Origin: a virus
Length of the DNA: 64,000 nucleotides
IMG/VR virus record: IMGVR_UViG_3300005529_000029
Location: 1-64,000 of that record
Strand: one strand, 5' to 3'
In this document: positions 9,761 through 56,641 of the stretch, piece after piece
Layout of the letters: each line of letters opens with the position of its first letter
How positions within the stretch are numbered: the stretch's first letter is position 1
Position numbers and translations under genes: made by a program
The notes under the pieces: model-generated
Told to the model about the DNA's origin: nothing
Seen by the model: the letters and a program-made list of their open reading frames with translations, nothing else
Database searches by the model: none

Positions 9761-10203
9761 ATCATCATTGGATTTGGCAAATTGGCAATTCCATAATCGC
9801 CGGCACCATATTGGATCATCTTCACTGTGCCAGCCCAGACACGCCACTGAAAACCTTGCATATCCATTTGATCATCAACGAAGGTATAGAGACGATCGAC
9901 CATATCGTCATTGCCCTTAACAATTCCTGTCACAATAAAAATCTTCCTTCCAGCAGCGCAATGACGTTCATAGAACCCATAGAGATAAGGCAACTCCGGA
10001 AGGAGAGTGCCTAGATCATCTGGATACGAGCCATATTGTTCACGAACACCGGTAAAGTTAAGCGTCAAAATATATCGAGGCAAAGTCGTATCGAACTTTC
10101 CAAACTCATCAATTCCACCACGATGTGGTACGCGAACATTGCCTAACGCCATCTGACTAACTGTTAGACCGTAATCGCTTGGAAGTTGAAAAGTCTCTGG
10201 CAT
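9757..10203 (-). CDS. Putative distal tail protein
   Basis: Immediately downstream of TMP, translationally coupled. Confidence 0.55.
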   Translation of the reverse strand: MPETFQLPSDYGLTVSQMALGNVRVPHRGGIDEFGKFDTTLPRYILTLNFTGVREQYGSYPDDLGTLLPELPYLYGFYERHCAAGRKIFIVTGIVKGNDDMVDRLYTFVDDQMDMQGFQWRVWAGTVKMIQYGAGDYGIANLPNPMMI

Positions 10204-13200
10204 TAGTTACCCACTAACCTCGCTAACTGATAAGAGTGTCCTTCGTTATTGTTAAAACCATCTACGGCCTTACCACTCACGATGTCATCATCAACAAATT
10301 GCATGAATGTATTGGGATTAACTTCTTTAAGACGATTGAGAACTTTGTTAACCTCACTCATCATCTGCATTGTCATTCTATGAATGATCTTCATCCCATT
10401 ATCATTATTTGGACTTGATGTAGAGTTACCCCGATTAGCCGCATGGTTGAAGAAAATCCCAGCGTCTCGATGGATATATCCAGAACCGCGAGGGATAAAG
10501 ACTTCAGGAACATTACTGTCGTGAACGATTACACCTTGACCACCAAAAGCGGTTCCACCTTCAGCTCGTGTTGGAAGATCTCCCATCCGAGTAATATTAT
10601 TTGCTGTGCTATTTGGATTTGTCCCGACATATGTTCTAACAAGTTCGTTATTTACCTGACCGGTCTGGAGCGCATAAGCAGTAAGCATCTGCTTGACATT
10701 CTGAAGATGAATAATGTCATTGACGTGATTACCAGCCTGTCCCTGGCCAAATGTCTGTTCACCAACCTGCTTGATTGACGTCAGAAGGTTATTATCTTTG
10801 ACGTCCAGGATCGGGTAGGTCGTACTCACAGCTTGTTTGATTGCTCTCTGGACTCCATTAGAAAGCCATCCAGCGAGTAATGCTCCACCAATAAGACCAC
10901 CAGCAACAATCGCGGTAATAGGATTGGAGAAGAGAGCTGGAAGAGCTGCAGAAAGACCGCTTCCAAAGATTCCAGTAGCTGCTAATGCCCCAGCACCAAG
11001 GGTACCACCAGCCATTCCAAGTGTCTGTCCAATTGGACTATTACCACCAGCAAAAGCTCCGAGGATGGATCCACCAGCAAGAACTCCCGCAGAACCTAAA
11101 CCGGCTAACTCAGAACCCTGTCCAACAAGTGGGATATTGGCCTTCATGTCTGCTGGACCGACATCTAAATTGAATGTGTTGGGTGAGAGATTCTGGAAGT
11201 CTGAATTCGTAAGAGTTTTTGATGCTGCATTGCCGGGGAACAATCCTCGTAATCCAGGAATCTTCTTTGCAAGAGTCGAAATTCCCTGTGGTGCCAATGA
11301 GCTTAATCCCGAAAAACCAGTTCCTCCAGCTTCAACTGGCGAGACCGAAAACGTCCCGGATGAACTGCCACCGCTAGGATTCGTGATTGAACTCACTGCA
11401 CTATGAGCCAGGTTCGGGAAGATGCTACTAAAACCTCCACTAGAACTTGTTCGTCGCGCGCCACCTGAATTACTGCCAGAGCCTGCACCATTTCCGGAAC
11501 CGGTTCCAGCACCAGCATAAGTTGGATCGAGGAAGTTCATGATCGCGCGGAAGAACTTCGAGGTAATCCATTCTGAGAAGAGTTGAGCAAGAGTACTCCT
11601 GAAGGATTCAAGTAGATGCTTAAATCTGGCTTCTGGACCTCTGGTAAGAGCATCTGTAAGTGAAGACTGAAAATCCTTCTGGAAATCGCCTATCGCTTTA
11701 TGAAGTTTAGTGAATTGATCAACTCTCTGAGCCTCGGCAATGAGAGAATCTTTCTGGGCCTGACTCAGATCATCATATTCAGACTTCTCAAGTTTAAGAG
11801 CAACCTGCTGAGCATAGGTTAAGTTGAGGCTCCGCTTCCGCTGTTCTTCAATCTCGATAAGAAGATTCTTGTATTGATCCTGAGTCTTGTTGAAATCCTG
11901 TTGTGCTTTATCAGCATTAATTGCATCCTGTGCCTGCTGAGCATAATCGAGGATCGAGTCCTTCTGTTCTCCCGTCAATGTCCTATCGCGACGTAATTTT
12001 GCCCTGATAGTGTCGACAAAAGAGGATTCGTCTTTCTTTGGGAACTTCTGTTCGATCTCACTCTGGAATCGCTCGAAAGTCTGTTGAGCTTTATCATTCT
12101 GGGCAATGACATCAAGAGCATGCCCCACCTGCTGAAGTTGAGTGATAAAATTCCTCATGTCAGTAGGAGCAAACTTTTCCAAGAACTCAAAAAGTGGCAG
12201 TCCAGCCGCGGCTCTTTGCTGTTCATCTGTAAGAGATTTGAGAACAACTTTACGGGCATCCTCGAGTAAAGTCATCTCTTTGGTCTTCACACCGAGCTGA
12301 TCTAATGAATCTTTAGCTTGTGCAGTTAACTCCGCAAGACTCTTAAGACCTTCATCATGGCGTTTCATTCCATCTAACTGGAGAGTGAAGTCGAGAACGC
12401 CTTGTGCGAGTTTGGCAAATCCAGGGTGAGCTTTATCAACCTGTTGAATGAACTTACTTAGATCATTCTCGGCCTCTGAACCGAAAGCCTTCTTTTTGGC
12501 TTCGTCCATGGCCTTGATTTCTTTGGCCATCTCTTTAAAGCCATCTTTAATAATCTCCTGCTTGACTTTCTCGAGATCAGAGACTTTGCCATAGTTATTA
12601 ACCGCATCACTTAACTCATCGTATTCTTTCCTAAGATCGGCAAAAGGAACTTCAGAAGTCGCCGTCGATTTGGTTTTACGCAAACCACCAGATTTATTCA
12701 GACCAGTCGCATTTTGAACTGCCTGTCGATCCTGGTCTAATTGTCTCTGAAGTTTGACATCCTCAGAGAACTGAGGCTCTTTCATCAGATCACGAACCAT
12801 CTGCTGAGTTGTCTGACCATATTCCGGATGGGTTAATCGCCATTGAATTGCTTCATCGGTTCTGGATTGGATTCGTCTGGCAACATCGCCAGCCATTAAT
12901 CCGCGAATCTTCTGATCAAGATTCTGAACTGCATTAGCCTGGTTATCGATCGCGTTTGTTCCGGCATCCATCTGGCCAGTGAAGAAGTTATAACGATTGC
13001 CAGTTTCAGTTAGTGCTGCATAAAACTGATCAAAATTACCCTTCGTATTTCCAAGAGTTGTCTGTAGATCAAAGAACTGTCTCGCACCTTCTTTGGTGCC
13101 TCCAGTTAAAAGAAGTATCTTCTGTCGCAGTGACTCTGTTTGCTTTTCTAGTTCTAACGATTTCTCGGTTATGCGAGTGACTTGCTGCTGTAACTCATCA

Positions 13201-15533
13201 AATGGGAGTCCAGTATTCTTATCATATCTGAGTAAGCCTACAGGCTGATAATTTTCAACATCTCGCTTATGTTGCTCAAGCTCATTGATAATCTGCTTCT
13301 CTTGCTGATAACTCTTCTGGAAACCGGAAATGACATCGCCACCCTGGACGAGTTGCTCTTGCTTTCGTAATGCCAGCTCTTTCGCTAACTCTTCATTCAG
13401 AAGTTTTAAAGCCTCAGTCTGATCATGCGCACTATTAATTCGCTGGCGAGATGCAGGATCCAATAGATCATACGCATTCTTTAGATCAACATTGGAGTCG
13501 GCTAAACTCTTTGTTCCTACAGTGATTCCTTTTAGATCATTATTGGCAGATTGCAAAATATTAATCTGCTTCTGTAAGGAAGTGATCTCATTCTCTGAGG
13601 CAATATGTAGCTCATTATAGTTTTGGATCAGTTTATAAATTCCATAACCGATTGCAGCCACTCCTGCAATGACTAATCCATAGACTCCGGCAGTGAGTGC
13701 CATTGCTCCAGCGCTCATCTCTGCAGCTTCACCAACTCCCATGAAATAGAGTCTGACCTGCATTAACACTGAGAGTAATCGTGAGCCACCTTCACCACTG
13801 GCAATCATTGCCTGAAGATTAAAGGCCGCAAACGCAATAGTCGCGCTCGTAATTGCAACCGTTGTCGCGGAAAACGCACCTGGATATTGATTGATAAACG
13901 CCAGGACTGAACTTAAAACAGTGATAAATGGCCCAGACAGAATCGTTAAACTCTTCTCAATATTGGCAGTAAACTGATCGAACTGTGCTCCAATTGATTG
14001 CTGTTCTTTCTTAAACGCTTCATCGACCTTGCCAGCGGCAATACTCATCGACGTCAGATCAGAAGAGAAGACTTGAGCTCGATTTCCGGTAAGAGAAAGA
14101 ACAGTTGCAAGGGCCTGTGTACCCGCAAAGAGTTTTCCGATGGTAGAAACATTACCACCAGTCTTTTGGTAGACTTCATCAAGGAAACCACCTAATCCTT
14201 TTGCTCGAAGGCCAGTCTCATTAAACTCAATACCTAACTGTCTGGCTAATCTCTGAGTAGTCTCTGATGGTTCTTCAATATCTTTCAGAGCTGCTCGTAA
14301 ACCAGAAATAGCTCTTTGTGGTCCAAGAGTCTCAGAGGATGCAGAGATTGCTGCAAACATCTCTTCCATCTTTAATCCAGATGAAGCCGCTAATTCTGAG
14401 ATTCCACCTAAATCTTTGGCAAGTTGAGGAATCGTAATATGGCCTTTAGCCACTGTCTGGAACATCTCATCATAGATTCTTGTAAGATCAGATGACTTTA
14501 ACCCAAAGGCATCCATCACGGTCGTTCCAGCTTGGATTGCATCTTCGGTGGATCCAATACCAGCGCGCGCGGCTTTGACCGAACTTGTTAATGCATCAAG
14601 AGCATCTTTCTGATCGATACCGGCTTTCAAAACTTCGTAATATCCATGAGCAAGGTCAGAGGTCTTACCATATTCGGCACCAAGACCTATCACCTGCTCG
14701 CGAACTTTATTAATTGATTGATCTTCTCCTAATAACATATTTACATTGGCAAACTCTCGCTCAGATTGAACGACTTCGGCAAAACCCTCCTGGATTAATC
14801 TCAATGCCTCAAAGAATGTCCGGCGTATGATTGTTCCCTGAAGGATCGCGACTAAAACGCTCCGACCCATCACTGCATCTGTATTCTGTACAGAAGTTGA
14901 GAGAGAATTTGATGCAGATGCAGCAGTGAGCATTACATTACCAAGTCGCTGCATCGCTATCTCATATTGTCCTCCCGCGGTAAGAGGTTTAGTTGTGATA
15001 CCACCACGTAACTGCGCGCCAATGAATCCCGATAAGTCAGTTGGAAATGCAGTTCCTCCAGTTTGGAGAGCACCTGCATCTGGACGGACGAACTTGAAAT
15101 TCTGGATCTGTAATAATGATCGGTAATAGTTCTCAGCTTCCTGCCGAGCTGCAGCAAATCTCGCTTTAGTGACTTCACCCCATAACTCAGCACTACGTTT
15201 TGCCTGCGCGAACTGAGCATCTAATTTTGCCACCACTAATCTAAGTTTCTCGATCGAAGGTGAAGCAAAATCAGCCATCTTCTTGACTGAATCACGAAGG
15301 TCTTGAACGCGCTGGTTCGCCAGTCTCAACTCTTCCTGTATTTTCCGAACCTCCATGAACTTCCTCATGAAGTCGGCGACTCCAGGACCGAGCTTGGCCA
15401 GATCGGCCAACATTCGCGTAATTGACTGATCAATGGAATCAAAGACAGATTTGACCTGTGGACCTTGCTGTTTTGCTGAGGTCGAATCTATCTCTATTCC
15501 AATACTGGCAATATCTAGATTATTGATGTCCAT
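10203..15533 (-). CDS. Tape measure protein (TP901-family core), 1776 aa
   Basis: Length, helical Ala/Gln-rich sequence, PhageMin_Tail-like region, position after tail chaperones. Confidence 0.93.
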   Translation of the reverse strand: MDINNLDIASIGIEIDSTSAKQQGPQVKSVFDSIDQSITRMLADLAKLGPGVADFMRKFMEVRKIQEELRLANQRVQDLRDSVKKMADFASPSIEKLRLVVAKLDAQFAQAKRSAELWGEVTKARFAAARQEAENYYRSLLQIQNFKFVRPDAGALQTGGTAFPTDLSGFIGAQLRGGITTKPLTAGGQYEIAMQRLGNVMLTAASASNSLSTSVQNTDAVMGRSVLVAILQGTIIRRTFFEALRLIQEGFAEVVQSEREFANVNMLLGEDQSINKVREQVIGLGAEYGKTSDLAHGYYEVLKAGIDQKDALDALTSSVKAARAGIGSTEDAIQAGTTVMDAFGLKSSDLTRIYDEMFQTVAKGHITIPQLAKDLGGISELAASSGLKMEEMFAAISASSETLGPQRAISGLRAALKDIEEPSETTQRLARQLGIEFNETGLRAKGLGGFLDEVYQKTGGNVSTIGKLFAGTQALATVLSLTGNRAQVFSSDLTSMSIAAGKVDEAFKKEQQSIGAQFDQFTANIEKSLTILSGPFITVLSSVLAFINQYPGAFSATTVAITSATIAFAAFNLQAMIASGEGGSRLLSVLMQVRLYFMGVGEAAEMSAGAMALTAGVYGLVIAGVAAIGYGIYKLIQNYNELHIASENEITSLQKQINILQSANNDLKGITVGTKSLADSNVDLKNAYDLLDPASRQRINSAHDQTEALKLLNEELAKELALRKQEQLVQGGDVISGFQKSYQQEKQIINELEQHKRDVENYQPVGLLRYDKNTGLPFDELQQQVTRITEKSLELEKQTESLRQKILLLTGGTKEGARQFFDLQTTLGNTKGNFDQFYAALTETGNRYNFFTGQMDAGTNAIDNQANAVQNLDQKIRGLMAGDVARRIQSRTDEAIQWRLTHPEYGQTTQQMVRDLMKEPQFSEDVKLQRQLDQDRQAVQNATGLNKSGGLRKTKSTATSEVPFADLRKEYDELSDAVNNYGKVSDLEKVKQEIIKDGFKEMAKEIKAMDEAKKKAFGSEAENDLSKFIQQVDKAHPGFAKLAQGVLDFTLQLDGMKRHDEGLKSLAELTAQAKDSLDQLGVKTKEMTLLEDARKVVLKSLTDEQQRAAAGLPLFEFLEKFAPTDMRNFITQLQQVGHALDVIAQNDKAQQTFERFQSEIEQKFPKKDESSFVDTIRAKLRRDRTLTGEQKDSILDYAQQAQDAINADKAQQDFNKTQDQYKNLLIEIEEQRKRSLNLTYAQQVALKLEKSEYDDLSQAQKDSLIAEAQRVDQFTKLHKAIGDFQKDFQSSLTDALTRGPEARFKHLLESFRSTLAQLFSEWITSKFFRAIMNFLDPTYAGAGTGSGNGAGSGSNSGGARRTSSSGGFSSIFPNLAHSAVSSITNPSGGSSSGTFSVSPVEAGGTGFSGLSSLAPQGISTLAKKIPGLRGLFPGNAASKTLTNSDFQNLSPNTFNLDVGPADMKANIPLVGQGSELAGLGSAGVLAGGSILGAFAGGNSPIGQTLGMAGGTLGAGALAATGIFGSGLSAALPALFSNPITAIVAGGLIGGALLAGWLSNGVQRAIKQAVSTTYPILDVKDNNLLTSIKQVGEQTFGQGQAGNHVNDIIHLQNVKQMLTAYALQTGQVNNELVRTYVGTNPNSTANNITRMGDLPTRAEGGTAFGGQGVIVHDSNVPEVFIPRGSGYIHRDAGIFFNHAANRGNSTSSPNNDNGMKIIHRMTMQMMSEVNKVLNRLKEVNPNTFMQFVDDDIVSGKAVDGFNNNEGHSYQLARLVGN

Positions 15534-15890
15534 TTAATCAGTCTTGTTTATGTGTGAAACGAATAGCTGATCGAGGTCTTTAATCCTATCAATCAGCCAT
15601 GGATTAAGGAAAATGCGGTGAAGCTGGCAATAAAAGAACAAGTCTGACCAGGATAACAGATCGATGCCAAAACCTGTTGATCGGCGACCCTTATTTACCT
15701 CAAAGAAGATATCAAGGATCGCCGCAGATTCAGGCATCAGCTCAGGCTCTCTATTCTCAGGTCGTATCAGGGACTTCCCTGACTCTTTTTCCTGCTCTTC
15801 AATCTTGCGGAGTGCAGGCAGAAAATCCGTTCTCTTTGGCCCAGCAACTAAGAGACGGAAACGCCAGTCTGCCCACTCTCGGAGTTTTTT
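15534..15890 (-). CDS. Tail assembly chaperone, -1 frameshift extension (gpGT-like)
   Basis: The -1 frame after A AAA AAC is open (KLREWADWRF...) and runs in frame into ORF 15534..15737. Confidence 0.85.
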   Translation of the reverse strand, partial: KKLREWADWRFRLLVAGPKRTDFLPALRKIEEQEKESGKSLIRPENREPELMPESAAILDIFFEVNKGRRSTGFGIDLLSWSDLFFYCQLHRIFLNPWLIDRIKDLDQLFVSHINKTD

Positions 15891-16279
15891 TCGATAACCG
15901 CCAGGAAGTTCTTGCGGTTATTGATAAATTGATCAACTTGCTCCCGGATGAATGCAAGTTTTGAGTTTTTATAGAGCTGATAGGCAGTCTCAAACTTGCA
16001 GGCAACTGGCTGTCCATCCTGAGTGATTCCTTCCCACTCAAGAGTGCAGGCAGCAAGAACTTTGATTCCAGCTTCCTGTTGACCTTCAAGGGATCCTTTA
16101 CCTTGAAGGTATTTTTCCCTTGCGGTATTAATGTATTTGCTCTCAGCGGTTCGATAAACGTCGCTATCTACACCGGCGAGTTTGATCCGAATGTCTGTGT
16201 CTTTTCCATTAGGAAGAACAATCGTTAGCCATTGCCCATCATCAGAGGTATTACTCTGCATTAATGCTGTGATATCCAT
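15848..16279 (-). CDS. Tail assembly chaperone (gpG-like)
   Basis: IRIKLAGVDSD...LAACTLEWEGI...FIREQVDQFINNRKNF; between tail tube and TMP. Confidence 0.85.
   Translation of the reverse strand: MDITALMQSNTSDDGQWLTIVLPNGKDTDIRIKLAGVDSDVYRTAESKYINTAREKYLQGKGSLEGQQEAGIKVLAACTLEWEGITQDGQPVACKFETAYQLYKNSKLAFIREQVDQFINNRKNFLAVIEKNSESGQTGVSVS
15884..15890 (-). promoter_or_regulatory. -1 programmed frameshift slippery site A AAA AAC
   Basis: Minus strand GAA AAA AAC in frame; X XXY YYZ pattern. Confidence 0.85.
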
Positions 16280-16330: not shown

Positions 16331-17524
16331 TTAGATATTGGTTATTTGCTCAATGAAGAACTTGGTTCCATAGGTCGAGTCATACTCGGCATAGAACATC
16401 ATGTCCTGAGTTATGCTCTTTCCAGTTTTCTTATCTGTCTTTGTTACACAACAGGTCGGAAAATTCAGCCGGTACTTATCACCCTTGCTCTGGTCGACAA
16501 TAGTGATCTGCGCCGAAATACGAGTGCCATTCTTCATCTTGGTGAGATAGGTCTCATCAAAGAAATAGGCGTTGATGGCAACCTCAGATCGGAAGATATC
16601 TTGCTCAATATGAGAAGGAACTTGAGAACCAACCTGATTCTTAGCATCGCGGCCATTCTTGAAATCGATCTTAACCGATTCACCACCAGTCAAAGTTGCT
16701 AGATTGGCCAGTCCAGCGTCACCAAGTTGTAAGGAGCATCCAGAGACCGCGCCGGCATCTGGAACGTTATTATTTGTCGCCGTATAAGTTGATCCTGCGA
16801 CTTGCGCAAGAGCCTGCGTCAGTCCGACAATTGGGAACGTCGCTTTAACAGCACCAGAAGTAGGTATATCGATCGTCGCATCGCCCACTTCACAGCCGGC
16901 ATAGACTTCATAAACGATTGGCGAAAGATCACCGAACTGCTGCTCGATCGAAAGGGTTGGCCTTGATGTTCCACCGGCAATAGCAACTTGTCGGTTACTC
17001 AGGAAAGTGACCGAGACTGGACCGGCCTCATCAACACAGGCTTCAGTAAATGTTAACTGTGTCGATGAAATCGCTGTGATTGTCTTGATGCCATTATTAC
17101 TGACTGATCCGGAGATAGTGACTCGATCGCCAATGGCCAGCCGAGCTGAGCCTAGGGGATCTGTTAAGAAGTTACCTGACGTCGCCGTGAACTTCTTTGT
17201 TCCGGCTGCAAAACCGCCACTGCGAGTAACAGTGATAGTTGCAAACGCTCCACCAATTGCAGATTCGATGAATCTGAGAATTGCGGCTTCATTGACCATC
17301 AAAGTGTCGATAGATCCGCGTGGAGTGAATGTTCCACCAACCTGTACGCCACCCTGTCGATCTGACCTGACCATTGCGGCTTCCTCATATTTCTGCTCGA
17401 GATTGATGATCGAATTCTCGAGATGAGGAATAATGCTATAGGCTGGAGTCGCTGGTGTCGTCCCAACTGTGACCTCTGGAATGAGGCTAAATTGGGTTAC
17501 GCTACTTGATGCTGGTCTGGCCAT
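16331..17524 (-). CDS. Major tail tube protein
   Basis: PEVTVGTTPATP N-terminus, RSDRQ, YAGCEV motifs; position. Confidence 0.85.
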   Translation of the reverse strand: MARPASSSVTQFSLIPEVTVGTTPATPAYSIIPHLENSIINLEQKYEEAAMVRSDRQGGVQVGGTFTPRGSIDTLMVNEAAILRFIESAIGGAFATITVTRSGGFAAGTKKFTATSGNFLTDPLGSARLAIGDRVTISGSVSNNGIKTITAISSTQLTFTEACVDEAGPVSVTFLSNRQVAIAGGTSRPTLSIEQQFGDLSPIVYEVYAGCEVGDATIDIPTSGAVKATFPIVGLTQALAQVAGSTYTATNNNVPDAGAVSGCSLQLGDAGLANLATLTGGESVKIDFKNGRDAKNQVGSQVPSHIEQDIFRSEVAINAYFFDETYLTKMKNGTRISAQITIVDQSKGDKYRLNFPTCCVTKTDKKTGKSITQDMMFYAEYDSTYGTKFFIEQITNI

Positions 17525-17537
17525 AATCGCTCCTTAT

Positions 17538-17993
17538 TTAAAAAGTAACTGACTCGTAAAAATCGAATGGTGTATTGACAATCATTCGAAAGCACCCATC
17601 ATCTGGAATCTGCCGTGGCAAACTTGATGCGCGAAAAAGCAATCCACTGAAACTGGCCCGGTTAAATATCGCCCTTGCATAATCGACCAAAAGATTCAGA
17701 GCTGATGTACCATTGCCCTTTGGTCCCATCACTGATAACTGGACAGTGCCAAAACATTGATTCTGGCCACCACCATTCTGACCAATTGTTGCTATTGCAG
17801 ATGGACCCATCAAAATATCTAGTTGCAACCAAGCTGAATCTGTTGGTGGTCGATCTATAATTGAGCCATCAACGTTAACCAATCCCTTCACGTTTGGGTA
17901 CTGAATCGGAGTCCGAGGATTATTGCTATTATCAACCCAGAGGGTCTTAAGCCGCGATTCAATAGCACTCCGGATTATCTCTGTCGTTCCCAT
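17538..17993 (-). CDS. Tail terminator-like protein
   Basis: IQYPN...WLQL...GTVQLSVMGPKGNG pattern; position. Confidence 0.7.
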   Translation of the reverse strand: MGTTEIIRSAIESRLKTLWVDNSNNPRTPIQYPNVKGLVNVDGSIIDRPPTDSAWLQLDILMGPSAIATIGQNGGGQNQCFGTVQLSVMGPKGNGTSALNLLVDYARAIFNRASFSGLLFRASSLPRQIPDDGCFRMIVNTPFDFYESVTF

Positions 17994-18389
17994 TTACTGT
18001 CTCTCTGCAATCTGAAGAACCGCAGGCGCTACAACCTTTACAATTCCGACTGGCGCCTGTTGTGATGTCCCATTCTCTAGACCTTTAACGACGTAATCTA
18101 AAGAATTCGTTATATACGTCTTCGATGGTTCTTTGATCTGAGCTGCAAACTCGGCAGCTTGAACTTTTCCCTCATATCCATCTGGATCCCGCGCATCCAT
18201 ATCAACGGAGGTATCAGGTTCATCAATCGCGTTATTCCAGTTTGCCCTTGCTCGACCGGTCTTCACTGGTGTCTGATCAATAAGGAGTTGCGCAGCAGCA
18301 ATATGCACTCGCTGATGTTTCTGTACGACCTTTTTAGGGATCGTCTCTTCAGTGAATCTCAGAAAGACCTGTTGATAATTGCTACTCAT
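17994..18389 (-). CDS. HK97 gp10-like tail completion protein
   Basis: TPVKTGRARANW...LENGTSQQAPVG. Confidence 0.85.
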   Translation of the reverse strand: MSSNYQQVFLRFTEETIPKKVVQKHQRVHIAAAQLLIDQTPVKTGRARANWNNAIDEPDTSVDMDARDPDGYEGKVQAAEFAAQIKEPSKTYITNSLDYVVKGLENGTSQQAPVGIVKVVAPAVLQIAERQ

Positions 18390-27017: not shown

Positions 27018-27662
27018 CTAACCTATGCGCTCAACCATCTCGATCGTTTCTTCTTTGATTTTGGCTTCGATTAGATTGTCAGTATTCGCCTCTGGTAATT
27101 GCTTCTGCTTATTGAATGTCTGCTCTTTAACCAATTCCCAGCGCGCGCGAAGGACATCACCTTTTCCATAGCCGGCATCGATCAATGCTTGTACGGCTAA
27201 TTTCAGTTCGATATTTTGATCCATTAATCGCTTGAGAGCCTCAAGCGCAATATTCACTGCACTCTGATTCTGATCGGCAATAGCCTGTCCATCAGGAGTA
27301 GTCTGGGCAATGAGAGTAGGCTTATCAACTCCAGTGAGTTTTGCTTCTCTTTCATCTAACTTAAGACAGAATTCGGCCGCTTTAAGATCGCCATCCATTG
27401 CCTTTGGAAAGTATCTTTTACGTAACTGATCATAGGAATATAAACGCTTAAGGCGAATCTTCTCAGCATTCTCCATCTGCTGTTCTTTTAAGCGCTTGAA
27501 GAGGATCCTTATATCGGTATTGATAACTGTCAAACTGACCTTGAGAGCTTCTGCGATCTCGCGGGAGTTCATTCCAGCGATAAGAGACTGAGATACCTTT
27601 AGCCGTCTCCCCTCGACGGTTAAGAGTTTGCCAGGCTGTGCTGTTTCAAAAGTACCTATCAT
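27018..27662 (-). CDS. Putative terminase small subunit (HTH)
   Basis: SREIAEALKVS HTH, AMDGDLKAA...REAKLTG, directly upstream of terL. Confidence 0.75.
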   Translation of the reverse strand: MIGTFETAQPGKLLTVEGRRLKVSQSLIAGMNSREIAEALKVSLTVINTDIRILFKRLKEQQMENAEKIRLKRLYSYDQLRKRYFPKAMDGDLKAAEFCLKLDEREAKLTGVDKPTLIAQTTPDGQAIADQNQSAVNIALEALKRLMDQNIELKLAVQALIDAGYGKGDVLRARWELVKEQTFNKQKQLPEANTDNLIEAKIKEETIEMVERIG

Positions 27663-27728: not shown

Positions 27729-28598
27729 TTAAGCCTTCGCTTTCTTTGGCTCTAACTGATTCACAAAACCAAGCTGATCAAGCTGGGTATGAATCTGTAA
27801 CCAGTCCTCTTTGGAGTCTGGCATTCGGTTATGCGTCTCAAGGAACTCGCAATAGAGATGCGTTACATAGACCATGGCCATAAAGGCAGTCGAGGTATTG
27901 ATGATCCGCATTGAATCCTTGGCTTCGATAATAGCTTTCGCAATTTCTGGAAACTGCTCTTTGGCTCCAATCAGATGTAACTTGGATCCATTGGTAATCT
28001 CCTTTAGGCAGCTCTTTAGAGACTCCAATTCCTTCGGCAGAAATAGCAGGTCAATCGACTGCATAACTAATGCTTGATCAGAGAACGCTTTGAGGTCGAT
28101 TGGTTTGAAAGCCTCAAAATAAGTGTCATCAATTCCGGCATATTGCTTGAGAGCAATGTCCTCAATCTCTTCCCAGATTTTCTTGAGCTGGCCAGGATCA
28201 TCTTCACCGACGATCGAGTTATGCGAGATACGAATAGCAATCTGTTGCTGTCGGGAAAGGTTTCTATTGGTATAGATATAGAAGTGGTACTTCTCTCCCG
28301 CTTCATGGCCTGCTCGAATGCGATGGTGTCCACTAAGGACATAGATTTTGTTATCTTTATCGATCCAGCAAAGCGGCCAGGATGATGACGCTCCATCGGC
28401 TTTGATATTCGCTACGAGTTGCTGAAATTGCTGCTTCTTCATGAAACGTGGGTTATCTTCAGCAAAGATAAACTCCTCGAACGTGCCTACACCTAATCGA
28501 AAAGGTTTTTGGTACTTTTCGAATGTAATATTAAGAGGAATCAGGCTACTTTTGAATTCGCTGAGCTCGGTGTCTTGCTCGCCCATTTTGACCACCAT
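27729..28598 (-). CDS. ParB/Srx-like protein
   Basis: NPRFM...LVANIKADG...VLSGHHRIRA...HNSIVGEDD. Confidence 0.8.
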   Translation of the reverse strand: MVVKMGEQDTELSEFKSSLIPLNITFEKYQKPFRLGVGTFEEFIFAEDNPRFMKKQQFQQLVANIKADGASSSWPLCWIDKDNKIYVLSGHHRIRAGHEAGEKYHFYIYTNRNLSRQQQIAIRISHNSIVGEDDPGQLKKIWEEIEDIALKQYAGIDDTYFEAFKPIDLKAFSDQALVMQSIDLLFLPKELESLKSCLKEITNGSKLHLIGAKEQFPEIAKAIIEAKDSMRIINTSTAFMAMVYVTHLYCEFLETHNRMPDSKEDWLQIHTQLDQLGFVNQLEPKKAKA

Positions 28599-45088: not shown

Positions 45089-45967
45089 ATGAAACCTACA
45101 AAAACAAAGACTGCGCGAGCAACTAAAATAGCAAAGACGACAAAAAGAGCCTCAAAGCCTTCAGCGAAATCGAAAGCAGTGATACCTGCGGCCAAAACTC
45201 AGCCGATTACCCATGAAGAGATTTTAGGAACTTCAGTGACTACTGAGCAGGTCCAGGAGAAGGTTCTCGTATTACGCTCCTGCAAGGCTGATATGACCAG
45301 TTATGATGGCTTTAAGTGGCCAGAATCTGGTTTCGTAGAAGCGCCTGACTGGAAACCCACAAAGCAATGTGGAAATGGGCTTCATGGGTGGCAATGGGCT
45401 GTTGGTGATTTCCGGCTTGGATTCCATGACAGAGATACAAAGTGGCTAGTTATTGAGGTCGACAAGTCACAGATCGTTGAGCTTGACGGTAAGGTCAAAT
45501 TCAAGAATGGCAATGTTATTAAGGTTGGAAACTGGCATGATTGTTTTTGGTATGTGAGAACCCACACACCGAAGCCGGTTTTGGAGAAACCGGCGCCTGG
45601 TGACTACGCGCACTCTTCGACAACCGGTGACTACGCGCACTCTTCGACAACCGGTTACTACGCGCACTCTTCGACAACCGGTAACTACGCGCACTCTTCG
45701 ACAACCGGTTACTACGCGCACTCTTCGACAACCGGTGACTACGCGCACTCTTCGACAACCGGTAACTACGCGACCGCTTGTGCCCTTGGCACAAACTGCC
45801 GCGCAAAAGCAGGAGATAAAGGTTCGATCATCCTCACCTATTGGGATGATAAGGCGAATCGTTTTCGGCATGTCATTGGATACGTTGGCGAAGATGGAAT
45901 CGAAGCTAATACTTGGTACGAAATCCAAGATGGAAAACTTGGTAAATGTTCGCGCCAGGATTATTAA
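45089..45967 (+). CDS. Phage repeat protein (DUF7666-like) with 9-aa repeats
   Basis: CGNGLHG, GKVKF, VGEDGIEANTWY motifs; (G[DYN]YAHSSTT)x6. Confidence 0.75.
   Translation: MKPTKTKTARATKIAKTTKRASKPSAKSKAVIPAAKTQPITHEEILGTSVTTEQVQEKVLVLRSCKADMTSYDGFKWPESGFVEAPDWKPTKQCGNGLHGWQWAVGDFRLGFHDRDTKWLVIEVDKSQIVELDGKVKFKNGNVIKVGNWHDCFWYVRTHTPKPVLEKPAPGDYAHSSTTGDYAHSSTTGYYAHSSTTGNYAHSSTTGYYAHSSTTGDYAHSSTTGNYATACALGTNCRAKAGDKGSIILTYWDDKANRFRHVIGYVGEDGIEANTWYEIQDGKLGKCSRQDY
45599..45772 (+). repeat. 27-bp in-frame tandem repeat, 6.4 copies
   Basis: GGT-NAC-TAC-GCG-CAC-TCT-TCG-ACA-ACC. Confidence 0.95.
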
Positions 45968-47720: not shown

Positions 47721-48869
47721 ATGATAAAGAATAATCCAGATGCTCCGATGGAGTTCACATTAAAGAAAGAAGACTTCCTGCGAGAGTTAACGCTGATCCA
47801 GGGCGTCATTGAAAAGAAGAGCACGATCCCAATCCTCTCGTATATTGCGATCGCTGCAAACGAGATAGGTGAGGATGGCAAAATCACTTTGATTGGCACA
47901 GATATGGATTTAAGTCTGACATCGACATGTCCGGCGAATATCAAGAATGCCGGCGTCGTTACAGTATCTGCAAAGCGGCTATTTGAGATCGTCAGGAATC
48001 TGCCAGATGAGCCGATCCATATCAAATGGATCGCTAATGATGGTATCGTCCTAACCTGCGCCAAATTCGTCTCCAAAGTCCTCGGCGCCGATCCAAATAC
48101 TTTCCCGGCGATCGAGACAACTGAGCAGCCAGGTATCGAAGCGAATAGCAAGATTCTTGCCGATCTGATCGCCAGAACCTCATTTGCAATCACCACGGAT
48201 GAATCTCGATATGCTCTTAATGGCGCTCTAATACTTCGAGAAGGAAAAAACCTCGTAATGGTAGCGACTGATGCGCACCGGCTTTCAGTAGCTCAATCTC
48301 AAGCTGAAGAACCATTAAAGGCTGGCCAGAAGTTACGGGCCTTGATTCCAAAGAAGACACTTTCAATGCTCTCAAAGTTATTGATAGGCATCGATGAGAC
48401 AATCACCTTCATTGAAGATGGCAATCACTTCTTCTTCAATATTGGAGAGCGAGTTCTAGTATCGAGATTACTTTCTGGCCAGTTCCCGAATTACGAGCTG
48501 GTTCTCCCGAAAGATAACAACAAGAAGTTGGTTGTAGACGCCTCTAATCTTGGGAAAGCAGTTCGAAGGGTCTCTCTTATGGCAGATGAGCGTAGTCATG
48601 CGGTCAAGTTGTCAGTATCCGATAAACAGATCCAACTTGAGACTAGATCGAGCGAGACCGGCGAAGCAACTGAGATTCTTTCTGCAGAGTACGAAGGACC
48701 AGCTCTTACACTCGCATTCAATGCTCAATACGTGACTGAGTTGCTCAGTGTTATCAGTGCCGAGAAACTGGAATTCGCCCTGAAGGATGAACAGAGCCAA
48801 ATCCAGATTCGTCCTATTGGCGAAGCAAAGATCGATCACAAATACATCGTGATGCCAATGAGGTTATGA
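47721..48869 (+). CDS. dnaN: DNA polymerase III beta sliding clamp
   Basis: STIPILS, GTDMD, ESRYALNG, VATDAHRL, GQFPNY, FNAQY, YIVMPMRL. Confidence 0.96.
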   Translation: MIKNNPDAPMEFTLKKEDFLRELTLIQGVIEKKSTIPILSYIAIAANEIGEDGKITLIGTDMDLSLTSTCPANIKNAGVVTVSAKRLFEIVRNLPDEPIHIKWIANDGIVLTCAKFVSKVLGADPNTFPAIETTEQPGIEANSKILADLIARTSFAITTDESRYALNGALILREGKNLVMVATDAHRLSVAQSQAEEPLKAGQKLRALIPKKTLSMLSKLLIGIDETITFIEDGNHFFFNIGERVLVSRLLSGQFPNYELVLPKDNNKKLVVDASNLGKAVRRVSLMADERSHAVKLSVSDKQIQLETRSSETGEATEILSAEYEGPALTLAFNAQYVTELLSVISAEKLEFALKDEQSQIQIRPIGEAKIDHKYIVMPMRL

Positions 48870-48872
48870 TTT

Positions 48873-49202
48873 ATGAGCTATTACGATTACGAACAGTCAA
48901 AGAAAATATCAAGCGATGATCCCCAATTTGCGGCATTAATAATGGCTGCAATTCGTAAAGCCGATTCTAACAACGCTGAGAAGCTCGCAATGGCATTTCC
49001 CTTTATCTATGCTGAATTCCAAGCGAGATACCACGTTGCTGGTGGCATCCTTCCAGGCGAAAAAGTCACACCACCTGACGAAGATACTTGTGAGTTATCT
49101 TCTCCAATTAACCAAGCATCAGTTGAGCTAATCAACTCAATCGTGCGGACAAAAATATCCAAGGAAGCAATCCTAAGAGACTTTGATGATGAGGAAACCT
49201 AA
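48873..49202 (+). CDS. Conserved phage protein
   Basis: FAALIMAAIRKADSNN...AFP motif. Confidence 0.65.
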   Translation: MSYYDYEQSKKISSDDPQFAALIMAAIRKADSNNAEKLAMAFPFIYAEFQARYHVAGGILPGEKVTPPDEDTCELSSPINQASVELINSIVRTKISKEAILRDFDDEET

Positions 49203-49214
49203 AGGAGCGATCTT

Positions 49215-49403
49215 ATGACAAAGAAGAAAGAGCTAGACATCAATAATCCTGACATCGCAAGCATTGGTATCGAGATTGATTGCACATCTAAAGGTGGCCG
49301 GAGGGAAGCTCAGGCTGTCTTCAACTCCATTGATGCGAGTATTAAGAAGAAATTAAAGAGCCTGAAAAGATACAAAAAGAGACACGCAAATAAGGAGCGA
49401 TAA
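49215..49403 (+). CDS. Small basic protein homologous to the TMP N-terminus
   Basis: AAAGGAG RBS; DINNPDIASIGIEIDCTS versus TMP DINNLDIASIGIEIDSTS. Confidence 0.8.
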   Translation: MTKKKELDINNPDIASIGIEIDCTSKGGRREAQAVFNSIDASIKKKLKSLKRYKKRHANKER

Positions 49404-49405: not shown

Positions 49406-51049
49406 ATGTCGGCCATAATAGAAGTGCAAAAACCACAGCATAGGAAAGAACGAGCTAACCCGGACTGGCCGGTTAAGGTCTACTCATATTGGATTGAGCC
49501 AATAGGCGATATCCCGGAATGGTTTTGGTTATTCCATGATCATATGCAACTACTCTGGAACGATATGGTGATTGCGCATGATGCTTTTATTGACGAACGT
49601 GAATTCTCTGAAGAATCAGATGGGAAATGGGATACAGATCGTAAACGGCTTGAATTCTCTGGCCTACGTGAGAAGCTCAAGAATGTGGCCAAGTCTAAAA
49701 AGGGTATTCTTCCTAGCTCATGCTATTATGAGGTTAGGGATCGATTTCTCATCACGATGGGCAGATATTGGAATCCTGACTCCACACTAAAACGCAGACG
49801 AAACGAAACAAAGAATTTCGATCTTGGGCGACCTGGAATGAAATTTGGTCGCAATAAAGTACTCATCCCACATGATTTGAATGCTGCAAATATCTCAACG
49901 TCTATTCTCTTTTCTAATAAAAAACCTCTCACCATTTTGCAGCGCACAAAACAACAGGGGCCGACGCGAGGAATTTTTGAGACACTCGGTTATAACTTTA
50001 ACTTTCGCATCAATCTTCATCGGCCGATTCCAAATGGTAATATCAAGCGTATCGCTATTGTCGGGGAAATGGTTAAACCATTTGGATGGCAGTGGCGACT
50101 GAACCTGACCATTGAAGAGCCACCAGTAAGACCTCAAAGGAAGAATGGTAGGGTTGCAGCAATCGACCTTGGATGGCGTTTAATGGACGATTGTATTCGA
50201 ATAGGCGTGTTAGTTGATAACAGTGATAATGCTATTGAACTATCCATTCCGCTGGATTTTGCGAATAATTCGCTAAGACGTCAAAGAGAGCATTTCATGG
50301 ACGTGACCGATGCATGTCTTCCTATACATTCTATTCCAGACATCTGGAAAGCTCAACAGGAGTCAGACCTCATCTTAGAAGTCTGCAAAAATCGTCTAAC
50401 CGCTCTTATTCCTGAGCTTTTACCAAATAAGGTTGCATGGGATAAGGCTCGACATAAGAGTCTTATTAAGTTACTCAATACATTGCGGGAAGATCATCCA
50501 GAGAGTTCCGCAATTGCAGTTATAGAGCAGTGGCGTACGACAAACTGGGTTCTACATAGAAGATGGCGGGCAGCATATGAACGATTCATGAGATGGAGGC
50601 GTGAAATCTACAGAGTCCTGGCTGCGGAGATTGCTTCTACGTATGACGAGATCGTTTTAGAGGATCGTTTGAATCTAGCAGAGATGTCGAGAGACGAACA
50701 GGCACCACCAGCTATCAAAGCAAGTCAAAAATACCGACACTGGACATCGCTTTATCTCTTTAAAGAATGCTTAAAATATGCGATGGATAAACAGCAAAAA
50801 CTCATTATCGCGGGTAAAACTGCTTACTCAACAGCAACTTGCTCAACCTGTGATGGTAAGATTAATACCGATGCTTCACTCTATCTAACCTGTGCTAATG
50901 GGCATACCTTGGATCAGGATCTTAATGCAGCGCGAAACCTATTAAAATCATATCCAGAATGCGAGAGCCTCCCAGGGTTAGAGTCGCCGATTAGGCACTC
51001 GCAACTTTCTAAGTGCGTTAGGACGCTAAGTCTTTTAAAATCACTATAA
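49406..51049 (+). CDS. cas12m: Compact type V CRISPR effector, Cas12m (V-U1/V-M)-like
   Basis: RuvC-I IDLGWR (D254), RuvC-II VLED (E419), Zn finger C479/C482/C496/H500, RuvC-III DQDLNAARN (D505); LWND and HRPIP motifs; array 9 nt downstream. Confidence 0.8.
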   Translation: MSAIIEVQKPQHRKERANPDWPVKVYSYWIEPIGDIPEWFWLFHDHMQLLWNDMVIAHDAFIDEREFSEESDGKWDTDRKRLEFSGLREKLKNVAKSKKGILPSSCYYEVRDRFLITMGRYWNPDSTLKRRRNETKNFDLGRPGMKFGRNKVLIPHDLNAANISTSILFSNKKPLTILQRTKQQGPTRGIFETLGYNFNFRINLHRPIPNGNIKRIAIVGEMVKPFGWQWRLNLTIEEPPVRPQRKNGRVAAIDLGWRLMDDCIRIGVLVDNSDNAIELSIPLDFANNSLRRQREHFMDVTDACLPIHSIPDIWKAQQESDLILEVCKNRLTALIPELLPNKVAWDKARHKSLIKLLNTLREDHPESSAIAVIEQWRTTNWVLHRRWRAAYERFMRWRREIYRVLAAEIASTYDEIVLEDRLNLAEMSRDEQAPPAIKASQKYRHWTSLYLFKECLKYAMDKQQKLIIAGKTAYSTATCSTCDGKINTDASLYLTCANGHTLDQDLNAARNLLKSYPECESLPGLESPIRHSQLSKCVRTLSLLKSL

Positions 51050-51058: not shown

Positions 51059-51289
51059 GTGACAACTCTTGCTCAACCGAGTCTCGGTTGAGACACTGCG
51101 CTGCCAATTCCTTGGCGGAAAGCTCAAAAAGTGACAACTCTTGCTCAACCGAGTCTCGGTTGAGACGTCTTGCCTCTGCTTCTCTCCTCGAGCCTTTCAC
51201 TGGTGACAACTCTTGCTCAACCGAGTCTCGGTTGAGACAGCGGAGGACGCGAGCGACAGCCTACCCTAATCCGCGTGACAACTCTTGCT
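51059..51289 (+). CRISPR. Mini CRISPR array: 3 full repeats, 1 truncated repeat, 3 spacers of 36 nt
   Basis: GTGACAACTCTTGCTCAACCGAGTCTCGGTTGAGAC at 51059, 51131, 51203; first 15 nt at 51275. Confidence 0.97.
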
Positions 51290-51363
51290 GAATTTTATTA
51301 ATGAATATATAATTCTGCTGGTTATCATTGGGTTATCTTTTTGAACGAGAGTTTGACGGACCT

Positions 51364-51390
51364 AGGGCTTCGAAAGAGGCCCTTTTCTTT
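51364..51390 (+). terminator. Intrinsic terminator after the array
   Basis: AGGGCTTC-GAAA-GAGGCCCT-TTTCTTT. Confidence 0.8.
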
Positions 51391-51470: not shown

Positions 51471-53066
51471 ATGTCTCTTCTTAGCGACGTAAAACGAGCG
51501 CGTTCTTGTTCTGTGCCAATTATCAGGATTACGACCCCTGACCCAATCAATTTGATGTTGACGTTAGCTAATGATGGGGATCCTACCCAGCAACATACTG
51601 AAGCACCAAAAGTCGGTTGGGACTGCATTCGTGGGCATTTCCACCTGAACAAAGCCGGTGAATCCTGGATTAACTCAAAGCTGAGTATTCCCGATCCGAA
51701 GGATGCGAACAAATTCAATAAGACGAACATCGTCACAGCGCCCGAAGCTGTGGGAGTCCTATTATCGCTTCCGGAAAATAGTATAGCTGTAATGCTTAAT
51801 GCCCATCGGTATCTGACCAATGATGCAAATGGCGCGCGGTTTATCCAGGTCCTGATGAATATCAGGGACCGGTTTAAGAATAATGGCCGAACTCTCTTCC
51901 TTCTCACAACCGATTGTCCTTTACCAATCGAGCTACAGCATGACGTCGTGAGTCTCTCAGAAGATTATCCAGATGACAAAGCGCTAAAAGAGATCATCGA
52001 GCCAATCTTTAACGATGCAAAGCTCTCTCCGACCAATGACATGGTTGAGAGAATTGTCGATGGGATTCGTGGATTACCGGCTTTTCCCGCTGAACAGGTG
52101 ACAGCAATGGCAACGACCATTGGCAAAGGCGTCGACGTTGATCTTCTCTGGCGACTAAAAGAACAGCAGATCAAAAACATCAAGGGTTTACGGTTCGACA
52201 CGTCCAGAGAAACATTTGACGATCTCGGTGGGCTCTTAGCCTGGAAGACCTTTACTCACCGGCTTCTCTCAGGGCGACAAAGATTCAAGCTAGTCGTCCG
52301 TCTTGAAGAGATTGAGAAAGCGATGGCTGGAGTTGGCGGCGATGGAAAACACGGTGATACATCGGGTGTCTCGGCCGGGATCCTCGGTTATCTCCTTGAA
52401 GTCTTCGAAGACTATGGCTGGACGGGAGCTTTACTTTTTGGGGTTCCGGGCAGTGGGAAGAGCGCGAGCAGTAAAGCACTTGGCAATACATTCGGAATCA
52501 AAACGATGGTCATGGATATTGCCGGAGCGAAAGAAAGTTACGTCGGTGCATCAGAACAAAATGTCAGAGAGCAGGTCAAAGCAATTAAGGCAATCGGTGG
52601 TAATGACATTTTATTTCTAGCCTCGTGCAATGGACTTGATGCTCTTCCACCAGCTCTAAAGCGTCGGTTCAAACTCGGCGTCTGGTTCTTCAATACTCCG
52701 ACAAAAGAAGAGCGAGAGAGCATCTGGACTATTAACGTCAAGAAGTTCAGCCTGAATGAGAGCCAGGAACTCCCGGATCAAGACGGTTTGACCGGTGCAG
52801 ACATCAGGAATATCTGCGAGATCGCGTATCAGCTTTCGAGTCCGACAGAGGAATGCTCTTTAGCTGAGGCAGCTCAGTACATTGTTCCAGTCTGCAAATC
52901 CGATCCGACTTCAATCACTCAGATGCAGACTCTTGCTGATGGGCGATTCTTATCAGCCAGTTTGCCTGGGATCTATCGAATGAATCCAGAAGAAGAGATC
53001 GCAATTCCTGAGTCAAAACAATCACGTAGATTCGCGCATGAATCCGATCCAGGTTTCACTTTTTAA
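51471..53066 (+). CDS. Ycf46-like AAA+ ATPase with rearranged motif order
   Basis: DLGGL, EEIEKA...GDTSG, GVPGSGKS, YVGASE, LPPALKRRF, LTGADI. Confidence 0.85.
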   Translation: MSLLSDVKRARSCSVPIIRITTPDPINLMLTLANDGDPTQQHTEAPKVGWDCIRGHFHLNKAGESWINSKLSIPDPKDANKFNKTNIVTAPEAVGVLLSLPENSIAVMLNAHRYLTNDANGARFIQVLMNIRDRFKNNGRTLFLLTTDCPLPIELQHDVVSLSEDYPDDKALKEIIEPIFNDAKLSPTNDMVERIVDGIRGLPAFPAEQVTAMATTIGKGVDVDLLWRLKEQQIKNIKGLRFDTSRETFDDLGGLLAWKTFTHRLLSGRQRFKLVVRLEEIEKAMAGVGGDGKHGDTSGVSAGILGYLLEVFEDYGWTGALLFGVPGSGKSASSKALGNTFGIKTMVMDIAGAKESYVGASEQNVREQVKAIKAIGGNDILFLASCNGLDALPPALKRRFKLGVWFFNTPTKEERESIWTINVKKFSLNESQELPDQDGLTGADIRNICEIAYQLSSPTEECSLAEAAQYIVPVCKSDPTSITQMQTLADGRFLSASLPGIYRMNPEEEIAIPESKQSRRFAHESDPGFTF

Positions 53067-55048: not shown

Positions 55049-56641
55049 ATGCAAGTCAATAAACCAACGCAACCCGTTCTCACACAATTCACGATCCCTC
55101 CGGCAACTGGATCAGTAGGACAAAAAGTCTGGCAGATAACTTCAAGCCCTCAATTTCAAAACGTTCTTTATCAGTGTGCGCCTGGAGATATCCTTGAGAT
55201 ACCTGCTGGTTCTCGATTGGTAGCACCGGTAGGTGGTTTTATCTTACCGGCTAAAAGTAATCCTCAAGGTCTTTGGATCACTATTCGTTCAAGCCTGGCA
55301 ATAACCTTGTCCCTAGATAAAAGAGTCTCACCTGGCAATCAACTGCAGATGGCTTCTTTAATCGGTCAAGACTCTGGACCTGTCTTATTAACGGCGCAGA
55401 GCCAGTCCAATAACGTGGCGTTTTATTACTTTGCAGGTCTGAATATCACTGTCCTGTCGACTTCGATGCCAGACGCCAAAGACCCTCATACACAGTTCAA
55501 TAGTGGGTTAATTCGACTTGGCGATCTATCTGAGACAAGCCTGTCGCACATGCCACATGACTTCATCTTTGATAGATGCATCATCGCTGGCCAGCCGAAT
55601 CTCAATACCATCCGGGGAATTGCTCTTAATTGCTCAAGAGTTGCAATCGTTAATTGCTATCTTCCCGATTTCCACGCGATTGGGAATGATGCCCAGGCTA
55701 TATGGGGATCGAACGGACTTGGCATGTACCTTATCCAGAATAACTATCTGGAAGGGTCAGGCGAGAATATCATGTTCGGTGGTACTGATCCGAAGATTCA
55801 GGGCCTGATTCCGAGCGACATCATCATCAGAGGTAATACAATTGCCAAACCTCTTACCTGGAAACAGAACGATCCTTCATACCTTGGTTATCATTGGGGA
55901 ATTAAGAATCTGCTCGAGCTGAAGAATGCTCAGCGCGTCCTCATCGAAAATAACGAGTTCTCAGGTTCATGGGCAGATGCTCAGACTGGAATTGGCATCA
56001 GTTTCAAATCGAACAATCAGGATGGAACCGCGCCATGGTGTCAAACCAGCGATGTGGAATTTAGGAATAACAAGATCACCGGCGTTGGTTTAGGAGTCAG
56101 TATTCTTGGCACTGACTTCAATCAGAAAACCGACAATCTGACATCGCGCATCTGGATTCACGATAACGATTTTGCCGACATCAATTCCAGATGGACTGGT
56201 AATACTCAGGCTGCAAGCGGGAACGCGATGCAGGTTCTTTCTGCAGTTGATCTCTTAGTCGAGAATAACAGTTTCGACAATAATGGTAATGCTCTAGTTC
56301 TTGATTCCGCAGACCCAAACTCTACCGTTAAGACAGAGCGATTTGCTTTCAGGAATAACGTCGTCAATTTCGGTCCTTATGGGATTAAGGGCAGTGGCGC
56401 GGCTTCTGGAAATGACAGCATTGCCAAGTTCATAGACGATGCTGATTTCACTGGTAACAACTTTATTGGCGATGTGTCGCTGATCAAACAATATCCCGTG
56501 AATAATAGCATCCTGGCATCCAGGCCAGTGAGGAAGCCGTCTCTACCAACAGCCGATCTGACTATCAAAGGTACGGTTCAATTCGATCCGTTGACCGGAA
56601 AACTGAGTTTTACCAGTGCCCCTATCATAACTCTGGAGTAA
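55049..56641 (+). CDS. Right-handed beta-helix (pectin lyase-like) protein
   Basis: PGDILEI, IQNNYLEGSGENIMFGG, LLELKNAQRVLIENN; Asn-rich coils. Confidence 0.75.
   Translation: MQVNKPTQPVLTQFTIPPATGSVGQKVWQITSSPQFQNVLYQCAPGDILEIPAGSRLVAPVGGFILPAKSNPQGLWITIRSSLAITLSLDKRVSPGNQLQMASLIGQDSGPVLLTAQSQSNNVAFYYFAGLNITVLSTSMPDAKDPHTQFNSGLIRLGDLSETSLSHMPHDFIFDRCIIAGQPNLNTIRGIALNCSRVAIVNCYLPDFHAIGNDAQAIWGSNGLGMYLIQNNYLEGSGENIMFGGTDPKIQGLIPSDIIIRGNTIAKPLTWKQNDPSYLGYHWGIKNLLELKNAQRVLIENNEFSGSWADAQTGIGISFKSNNQDGTAPWCQTSDVEFRNNKITGVGLGVSILGTDFNQKTDNLTSRIWIHDNDFADINSRWTGNTQAASGNAMQVLSAVDLLVENNSFDNNGNALVLDSADPNSTVKTERFAFRNNVVNFGPYGIKGSGAASGNDSIAKFIDDADFTGNNFIGDVSLIKQYPVNNSILASRPVRKPSLPTADLTIKGTVQFDPLTGKLSFTSAPIITLE

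Follow-up and report, generated by a model that had tools for sequence, protein, structure and literature searches.

The head-proximal end of the siphophage tail (three tape measure protein [TMP] N-termini, the completion protein, and the DNA end) has been resolved only recently. In the neck of the S. aureus phage 80alpha, only residues 1 to 37 of the TMP are ordered, with one beta-strand and one helix per chain (Kizziah et al., 2024 preprint; PMC11661146). The three TMP strands and a hairpin of the tail completion protein make up a five-stranded sheet, the TMP helices bundle with the terminal helices of the completion protein directly below the DNA end, and the lining of the lumen is negatively charged (PMC11661146).

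Two described phage systems interfere with the assembly of tails. Tab, from Pseudomonas phage JBD26, has a self-targeting activity that is countered by a partner protein, anti-Tab (Patel et al., 2024; PMC10884400), and the Tai systems are carried by prophages and PICIs (PMC11364771). A full-text literature search found no published stand-alone mimic of a TMP N-terminus, in agreement with a sequence-only reading of the locus considered here, which knew of no described example. A natural, separate copy of exactly the TMP segment that is ordered in 80alpha is a direct handle on this junction, and here we analyze such a copy, encoded by a mini-gene of an uncultured soil phage.

A separately encoded copy of the TMP N-terminus

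The phage is represented by a 75,239-nt IMG/VR viral contig (linear, 79% complete by CheckV, GC content of 45.7%), of which the first 64 kb, called the window below, were analyzed. The same proteins are also found on a record from a contig of 102,742 nt, and so the genome is probably larger than the 75,239-nt record. The minus-strand arm (about 1 to 32.8 kb) carries genes for lysis, packaging, the head, and a siphovirus tail. Its tail genes are ordered as completion protein (17994-18389; gpZ/80alpha gp51 class; phrog_169, E 1.1e-22), tail terminator (17538-17993; phrog_179, E 1e-24; PF13554), tail tube (16331-17524), chaperone (15848-16279, plus a downstream frame at 15534-15737), and the 1776-aa TMP (10203-15533; TIGR01760, E 1.7e-27; PF10145), all on the minus strand. 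Elsewhere on this arm, two minus-strand genes (27018-27662 and 27729-28598) adjoin that for the large terminase, one with an RNase E-like match in PHROG (phrog_645, E 2.5e-19) and one for a ParB-like nuclease or a methyltransferase-type protein.

The plus-strand arm, from 33 kb onward, includes an AraC-type regulator, a Mom-like protein, a sliding clamp (47721-48869), and a 109-aa ORF, which is followed on its 3' side by the mini-gene, a type V effector gene, a CRISPR array, and a terminator-like hairpin, in that order. An ORF at 45089-45967 (DUF7666) contains 6.4 copies of a tandemly repeated 27-nt unit (96% matches; 45599-45772), which encodes a repeated nine-residue peptide. Farther along, the 530-aa product of a gene at 55049-56641 (plus strand) is a protein with a right-handed beta-helix (PF13229) that may be a depolymerase or a tailspike-like enzyme, and its presence means that this "early" arm does not consist purely of replication genes.

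The mini-gene (49215-49403, plus strand) runs from an ATG start to a TAA stop at 49401-49403 in an intact frame and encodes a 62-aa protein with a pI of 10.1. Its Shine-Dalgarno region, AAGGAGCGAT (49202-49211, plus strand), contains AAGGAG at 49202-49207, which is 7 nt from the ATG, a near-ideal spacing. The sequence-only reading had noted this strong ribosome-binding site, as well as a Lys/Arg-rich tail, and was correct on both counts. No promoter-like site was found 5' of the mini-gene. The window contains just three copies of the 10-mer AAGGAGCGAT: at 49202; at 49392-49401, where a second direct copy on the plus strand forms the last codons of the mini-gene together with the cas12 Shine-Dalgarno sequence; and on the minus strand at 17526-17535, ahead of the major tail gene. 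Each of the three copies is a ribosome-binding site, serving the mini-gene, cas12, and the major tail protein.

The encoded protein begins with MTKKKE, continues with an acidic module that resembles TMP residues 1 to 38 (mini-protein residues 7 to 43; 49233-49343, plus strand; net charge of -3.2), and ends in a polybasic helix (residues 44 to 62; 49344-49400, plus strand), where Lys and Arg account for 11 of the last 19 residues (net charge of +9.8). An AF2 monomer model places a helix at residues 26 to 61 (pLDDT up to 91) and leaves residues 1 to 25 unfolded or in coil, as expected of a strand that needs a partner. The mini-protein has no Pfam, NCBIfam, or PHROG match and no HTH domain. It is not itself a TMP, being only 62 aa long, matching no TMP core domain, and lying 34 kb away on the other strand. 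RNA-level interpretations of the same stretch were tried and rejected: no anti-repeat was found that would mark it as a tracrRNA, it has no excess structure (z +0.59), and it matches no Rfam family. A coding reading is thus the economical one.

The likeness to the TMP stands alone in the window. In an all-against-all BLASTP comparison of the 655 ORFs of at least 30 aa, the mini-gene and the TMP gene are the sole non-overlapping pair at E<=1e-3 (E 1.6e-9). When the mini-protein was compared directly with the 1776-aa TMP, its residues 7 to 52 aligned with TMP residues 1 to 47 (26/47 identical, E 6e-11), which bears out the sequence-only reading's central observation of an ORF resembling the N-terminus of a TMP encoded on the other strand. 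That reading had confined the alignment to TMP residues 1 to 38. Clear homology does start at TMP codon 2 and stop at TMP residue 38 (mini-protein residue 43), so that the copied segment corresponds to TMP codons 1 to 38 (15420-15533, minus strand); beyond this point, only three hydrophobic positions remain in register, namely, L47, L50, and Y53 of the mini-protein with L42, L45, and L48 of the TMP. These are the only three large hydrophobic residues of the tail, and the chance of such a register is about 0.04. Otherwise, past TMP residue 38 the mini-protein differs almost everywhere and turns Lys/Arg-rich, whereas two TMP alleles stay alike.

At the codon level, 7 of the 10 codons of the shared DIASIGIEID block differ synonymously between the mini-gene and the TMP gene, a count from the earlier reading that the codon table reproduces. 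Over TMP codons 2 to 16, pS is 0.91 and pN is 0.03, and over codons 2 to 47 the values are 0.88 and 0.30. A second TMP allele, P0005, was recovered from JGI contig L003 and served as the basis for a three-way codon comparison, in which synonymous sites proved saturated in all three pairs (pS 0.77-0.91). Because of this saturation, the copy is not a recent intragenomic duplication, and to that extent the sequence-only reading holds. Its further step, that the pattern points to selection on the peptide, is not established: the synonymous excess does not demonstrate selection on the mini-peptide itself, since the same pattern would be expected if the segment had diverged as a working TMP N-terminus elsewhere and had then been captured recently. 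Deliberate recoding to avoid recombination or self-targeting was also considered and rejected, as saturation alone predicts that about 8 of the 14 conserved codons would differ, and 7 do.

The same codon table assigns 5 private changes within TMP residues 2 to 38 to the mini-gene branch, 3 to the window TMP, and 9 to P0005, and so the mini-gene branch is not accelerated within the TMP-like module. Over 38 aa, the mini-protein is 63% identical to its own TMP and 47% identical to P0005, and in the strand block the figures are 15/16 versus 10/16. The mini-protein is closer to the resident TMP than P0005, the sole other known allele, is.

The proposed partner of the copied segment is encoded in the same phage. 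The gene at 17994-18389 belongs to the tail completion class (gpZ/gp51/Neck1) by its profile match and by its position directly upstream of the terminator gene, and its product has about 900 phage homologues, several of them annotated as a tail completion or Neck1 protein. The TMPs of distant phages with a homologous completion protein start with an alternating-hydrophobic strand that is followed by a helix. AF2 modeled the completion protein too poorly for its fold to be confirmed (pLDDT 52), with no Foldseek match to the model, and PDB sequence searches with the completion protein and with mini-protein/TMP profiles gave no match. From this sequence layout and from one structure, that of 80alpha, we infer that the copied segment spans the part of the TMP that is expected to dock at the tail top.

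Alleles, relatives, and origin

The TMP gene is common to the window phage and to L003, an otherwise unrelated metagenomic phage contig. DNA similarity between the window TMP gene (10203-15533, minus strand) and L003:827-6163 extends exactly from the ATG to the stop, with unrelated flanks; the first 480 nt are 80% identical at the nucleotide level, and the remainder is 95.7% identical. At the protein level, P0001 and P0005 are 57% identical over residues 1 to 40 and 100% identical over residues 681 to 1760, and the divergent patches between the window and L003 TMPs fall at residues 1 to 80, 161 to 240, and 561 to 640. To judge from these alignments, the gene behaves like a mosaic cassette whose internal alleles are old, and the TMP N-termini of this family are swappable. 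Searches with TMP residues 1 to 110 or 1 to 150 as the query matched only the phage itself, the first 150 residues had no match in isolated phages, and the whole TMP had no match in IMG/VR.

Relatives of the mini-protein were sought by tblastn against 50,697 phage records, by pattern scans of IMG/VR, by a word search of 5.8 billion proteins (near and longer lengths), by phmmer against 1.8 billion representatives, and in JGI metagenomes and GTDB genomes. Among about 15 billion proteins, its sole mini-protein relative is a K45N variant (P0003). The second phmmer match, P0004, is a eukaryote-type IQ-repeat protein and was set aside as spurious, and the ESM Atlas returned only generic single-helix look-alikes. 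The relatives of the mini-protein are thus the two TMP alleles and its own K45N variant only; since they lie within the TMP family, the mini-protein arose there and was not brought with cas12 from elsewhere.

The stretch is present in soil and mine metagenomes from four studies. Four runs from three of these are identical over 2.8 kb except for a G>T change at position 49349 in one mine-metagenome run, which is non-synonymous (Lys45 to Asn) and lies in the basic tail of the mini-protein. The mini-gene arrangement persists across sites and years. The sampled populations are near-clonal and have no power for measuring selection on the mini-gene.

Traces of how the unit was assembled may survive in two nested direct repeats that bracket it. 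The inner repeat, AAGAAGAAA, is 9 nt long and has copies on either side of the TMP-like module (49221-49229 and 49344-49352, plus strand), 123 nt or 41 codons apart, while the two copies of AAGGAGCGAT are 190 nt apart; both repeats together arise in about 3% of Markov simulations. Without the inner AAGAAGAAA unit, cas12 would be preceded by a Lys/Arg ORF of 21 aa. Together, the nested repeats and this residual ORF suggest that a polybasic leader ORF was already present and received the TMP module as an in-frame insertion.

The neighboring gene, the ATG of which (49406) lies 2 nt 3' of the mini-gene stop, is a genuine cas12, as the sequence-only reading had stated. It encodes a compact, 547-aa type V effector (49406-51049, plus strand; Cas12u1/Cas12f-like; PADLOC Cas12u1, E 3.7e-33, and Cas12f, E 1.3e-30; Pfam Cas12f1-like TNB, E 1.5e-8), the class of which is assigned by the Cas12 profile match and the adjacent CRISPR array. 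The array (51059-51292, plus strand) comprises three 36-nt repeats, three spacers, and a truncated fourth repeat, and a terminator-like hairpin at 51364-51383 (plus strand) marks the end of the transcription unit. With the AAGGAG of cas12 inside the last codons of the mini-gene, cas12 is, as far as its signals indicate, translationally coupled to the mini-gene. Nothing beyond co-transcription ties the mini-gene to Cas12 function. No close cas12 relatives were found in IMG/VR, a search in phages gave only distant TnpB matches, and the array spacers had no match in the window, L003, or IMG/VR (22-nt seeds).

Directly 3' of the terminator-like hairpin lies a gene for an AAA+ ATPase (51471-53066, plus strand) with matches to IetA models in PADLOC (E 7e-10) and to ATPase families in PHROG. 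Together with the gene for this IetA-like ATPase, the mini-gene and cas12 may form an accessory, conflict-related island. A companion note on the cas12 locus had called the phage a prophage, a label that is unsupported, as no tyrosine integrase (PF00589) was found in the whole 75,239-nt record, itself 79% complete.

Candidate roles of the mini-protein

We tentatively propose, as the likeliest reading but with a confidence that falls well short of even, that the mini-protein is a self-matched docking mimic that acts on the phage's own TMP family. The mini-gene would be translated into a small basic protein, the core of which is paralogous to the TMP's head-proximal docking module, that is, the N-terminal beta-strand and the start of the helix (residues 1 to 38). 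Through strand mimicry, the mini-protein would dock on the beta-hairpin and helices of the completion protein at the tail top; alternatively, its strand might join the TMP bundle of its own TMP family. This would place the new polybasic helix next to the acidic lumen of the tail or next to the DNA end. In such a position, the mini-protein might serve as a placeholder or modulator of tail completion, or it might be a small passenger that is loaded at the junction between the TMP and the completion protein.

Several observations argue for the docking mimic. The homology is unique and significant, and its sharp limits coincide with the ordered segment of 80alpha, residues 1 to 37. The strand-helix layout recurs in distant TMPs, the mini-gene branch is unaccelerated, and the translation signals are good. 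Action on the phage's own TMP family is suggested by the match to its own TMP, which is better than that to the other known allele, and a poison specific for rivals accordingly seems less likely than a self-matched mimic. Other observations count against the docking mimic. The only relative of the mini-protein is the K45N variant, so that conservation over time cannot be shown, and the gene is located in the plus-strand arm with replication genes, away from the tail genes. Also, there is one completion protein per virion, and a strong binder in excess would therefore harm the phage itself. Finally, the six extra N-terminal residues might hinder docking.

The mini-gene could instead be a by-product of recombination, an account that we regard as doubtful but serious: a 5' fragment of a third TMP allele would have been inserted recently and in frame into the short polybasic ORF or leader of cas12, would not yet have decayed, and would at most couple translation into cas12. 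In its favor, the TMP gene is a mobile mosaic module, with a precedent in L003 for a joint at the TMP start, and this joint and the nested repeats would make the mechanism an easy one. The short Lys/Arg ORF left upon removal of the unit fits this account as well, and so do the saturated synonymous sites, provided that the segment had served as a TMP elsewhere while it diverged. Independent conservation is lacking too, as the single SNP in 2.8 kb of a near-clonal population is non-synonymous and falls in the mini-gene. Nevertheless, both borders of the copy coincide with those of a structural module (TMP residues 1 to 38), and the insert is in frame and in sense orientation. The unaccelerated mini-gene branch allows only a short neutral period, which requires a recent capture. 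The donor allele was not found among the roughly 15 billion proteins, and the copy resembles the resident TMP more closely than P0005 does. We consider it unlikely that the mini-protein is an anti-defense sponge that shows the phage's own TMP N-terminus early and thereby titrates a host or prophage binder, for example, a Tab-like blocker. No defense that binds the N-terminus is known, Tab maps to the TMP's C-terminal region (PMC10884400), and a sensor that is activated by binding would be triggered by a decoy rather than blocked. A sponge also leaves the polybasic tail unexplained, and the mini-gene has no PADLOC or PHROG match. However, a decoy must match self, as the mini-protein does (15/16 in the strand block), the gene sits in an early-type operon beside a conflict system (cas12, then the IetA-like ATPase), and proteins acting on TMPs do exist, as exemplified by Tab (PMC10884400) and by Avs sensors, which are reported to bind TMPs (review, PMC13728456).

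Very unlikely, in our judgment, is the main idea of the sequence-only reading, a dominant-negative weapon that poisons tail completion in co-infecting phages with the same TMP/completion family and forms a two-part anti-competitor module with Cas12. It would share its docking logic with the docking mimic, phages are known to use the blocking of tail assembly as a strategy (Tab and Tai), and the TMP family is common to otherwise unrelated phages, so that rivals with a compatible tail top exist. Such a weapon would hit self first, though, given that the phage's own TMP is the best match of the copy; nothing like anti-Tab is evident as an immunity partner, neither an integrase nor another sign of prophage expression was found, nor a promoter of its own, and the spacers offer no match in the window, L003, or IMG/VR. 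The least probable of these accounts makes the TMP likeness incidental and assigns to the mini-gene a Cas12-linked role, either as a basic, nucleic-acid-binding cofactor or as a regulatory upstream ORF for cas12. The mini-gene stop just 2 nt before the cas12 ATG, the cas12 Shine-Dalgarno sequence inside the mini-ORF, and the charge of +10 in the predicted helix of the tail would all suit such a role, yet it does not explain a TMP-type conservation pattern over 37 residues. Moreover, the region contains no detectable anti-repeat, RNA structure, or HTH domain, and comparable cas12 loci were not found, with only distant TnpB matches in phages.

Beyond this one phage, we suggest, with considerable doubt, that stand-alone copies of TMP N-termini are an undescribed class of phage accessory proteins that operate at the head-proximal tail end through donor-strand mimicry. 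In this phage, such a copy, co-expressed with Cas12, might be an inter-phage weapon, an anti-defense decoy, or a tag that loads a basic passenger by the DNA end for co-injection. If the mini-protein binds the completion protein, the interface could be addressed in trans. Such access would bear on tail completion, on interference between phages or evasion of TMP-binding defenses, and possibly on a tag for loading the tail lumen. If the mini-gene is only a recombination scar, it still documents the movement of TMP 5' modules.

Comparison with known systems

Among described systems, the Tai systems of prophages and PICIs (PMC11364771) share with the ideas above that of a mobile element blocking the tail assembly of a rival. 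They differ in that no sequence similarity was detected, in that they are not based on mimicry, and in their genomic context. The mini-gene has no PHROG or PADLOC match to defense proteins, a search in which PADLOC 2.0 of 2023 may omit Tab and Tai, and traits of Tab and Tai (a promoter of their own, an integrase [sought in the 75-kb record], and a self-immunity partner) were not found at the locus.

Tab is closer in kind, as it too is a small phage protein tied to the TMP and tail assembly. Unlike the mini-protein, Tab is not a TMP copy, and sensitivity to it maps to the TMP's C-terminal region (PMC10884400). Expression of Tab starts from a prophage promoter located between the terminase genes (PMC10884400), whereas the phage here shows neither a partner nor a promoter nor a lysogeny gene.

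The closest parallel is structural, namely, gp56 (residues 1 to 37) and gp51 of 80alpha (PMC11661146). The copied segment has the same position in the TMP, the same length (about 37 residues), and, to judge from its alternating-hydrophobic start and predicted helix, probably the same strand-then-helix layout, and the window phage has a completion protein of the same functional class as gp51 directly upstream of its tail terminator. In contrast to gp56, the segment here is part of a separate 62-aa protein, is fused to a polybasic helix, and is encoded 34 kb from the tail genes, and its sequence identity to gp56 is insignificant (13%). The junction between the TMP and the completion protein of 80alpha was known already, as were Tab and Tai, which are not mimics; what is new here is a separately encoded copy of the TMP N-terminus.
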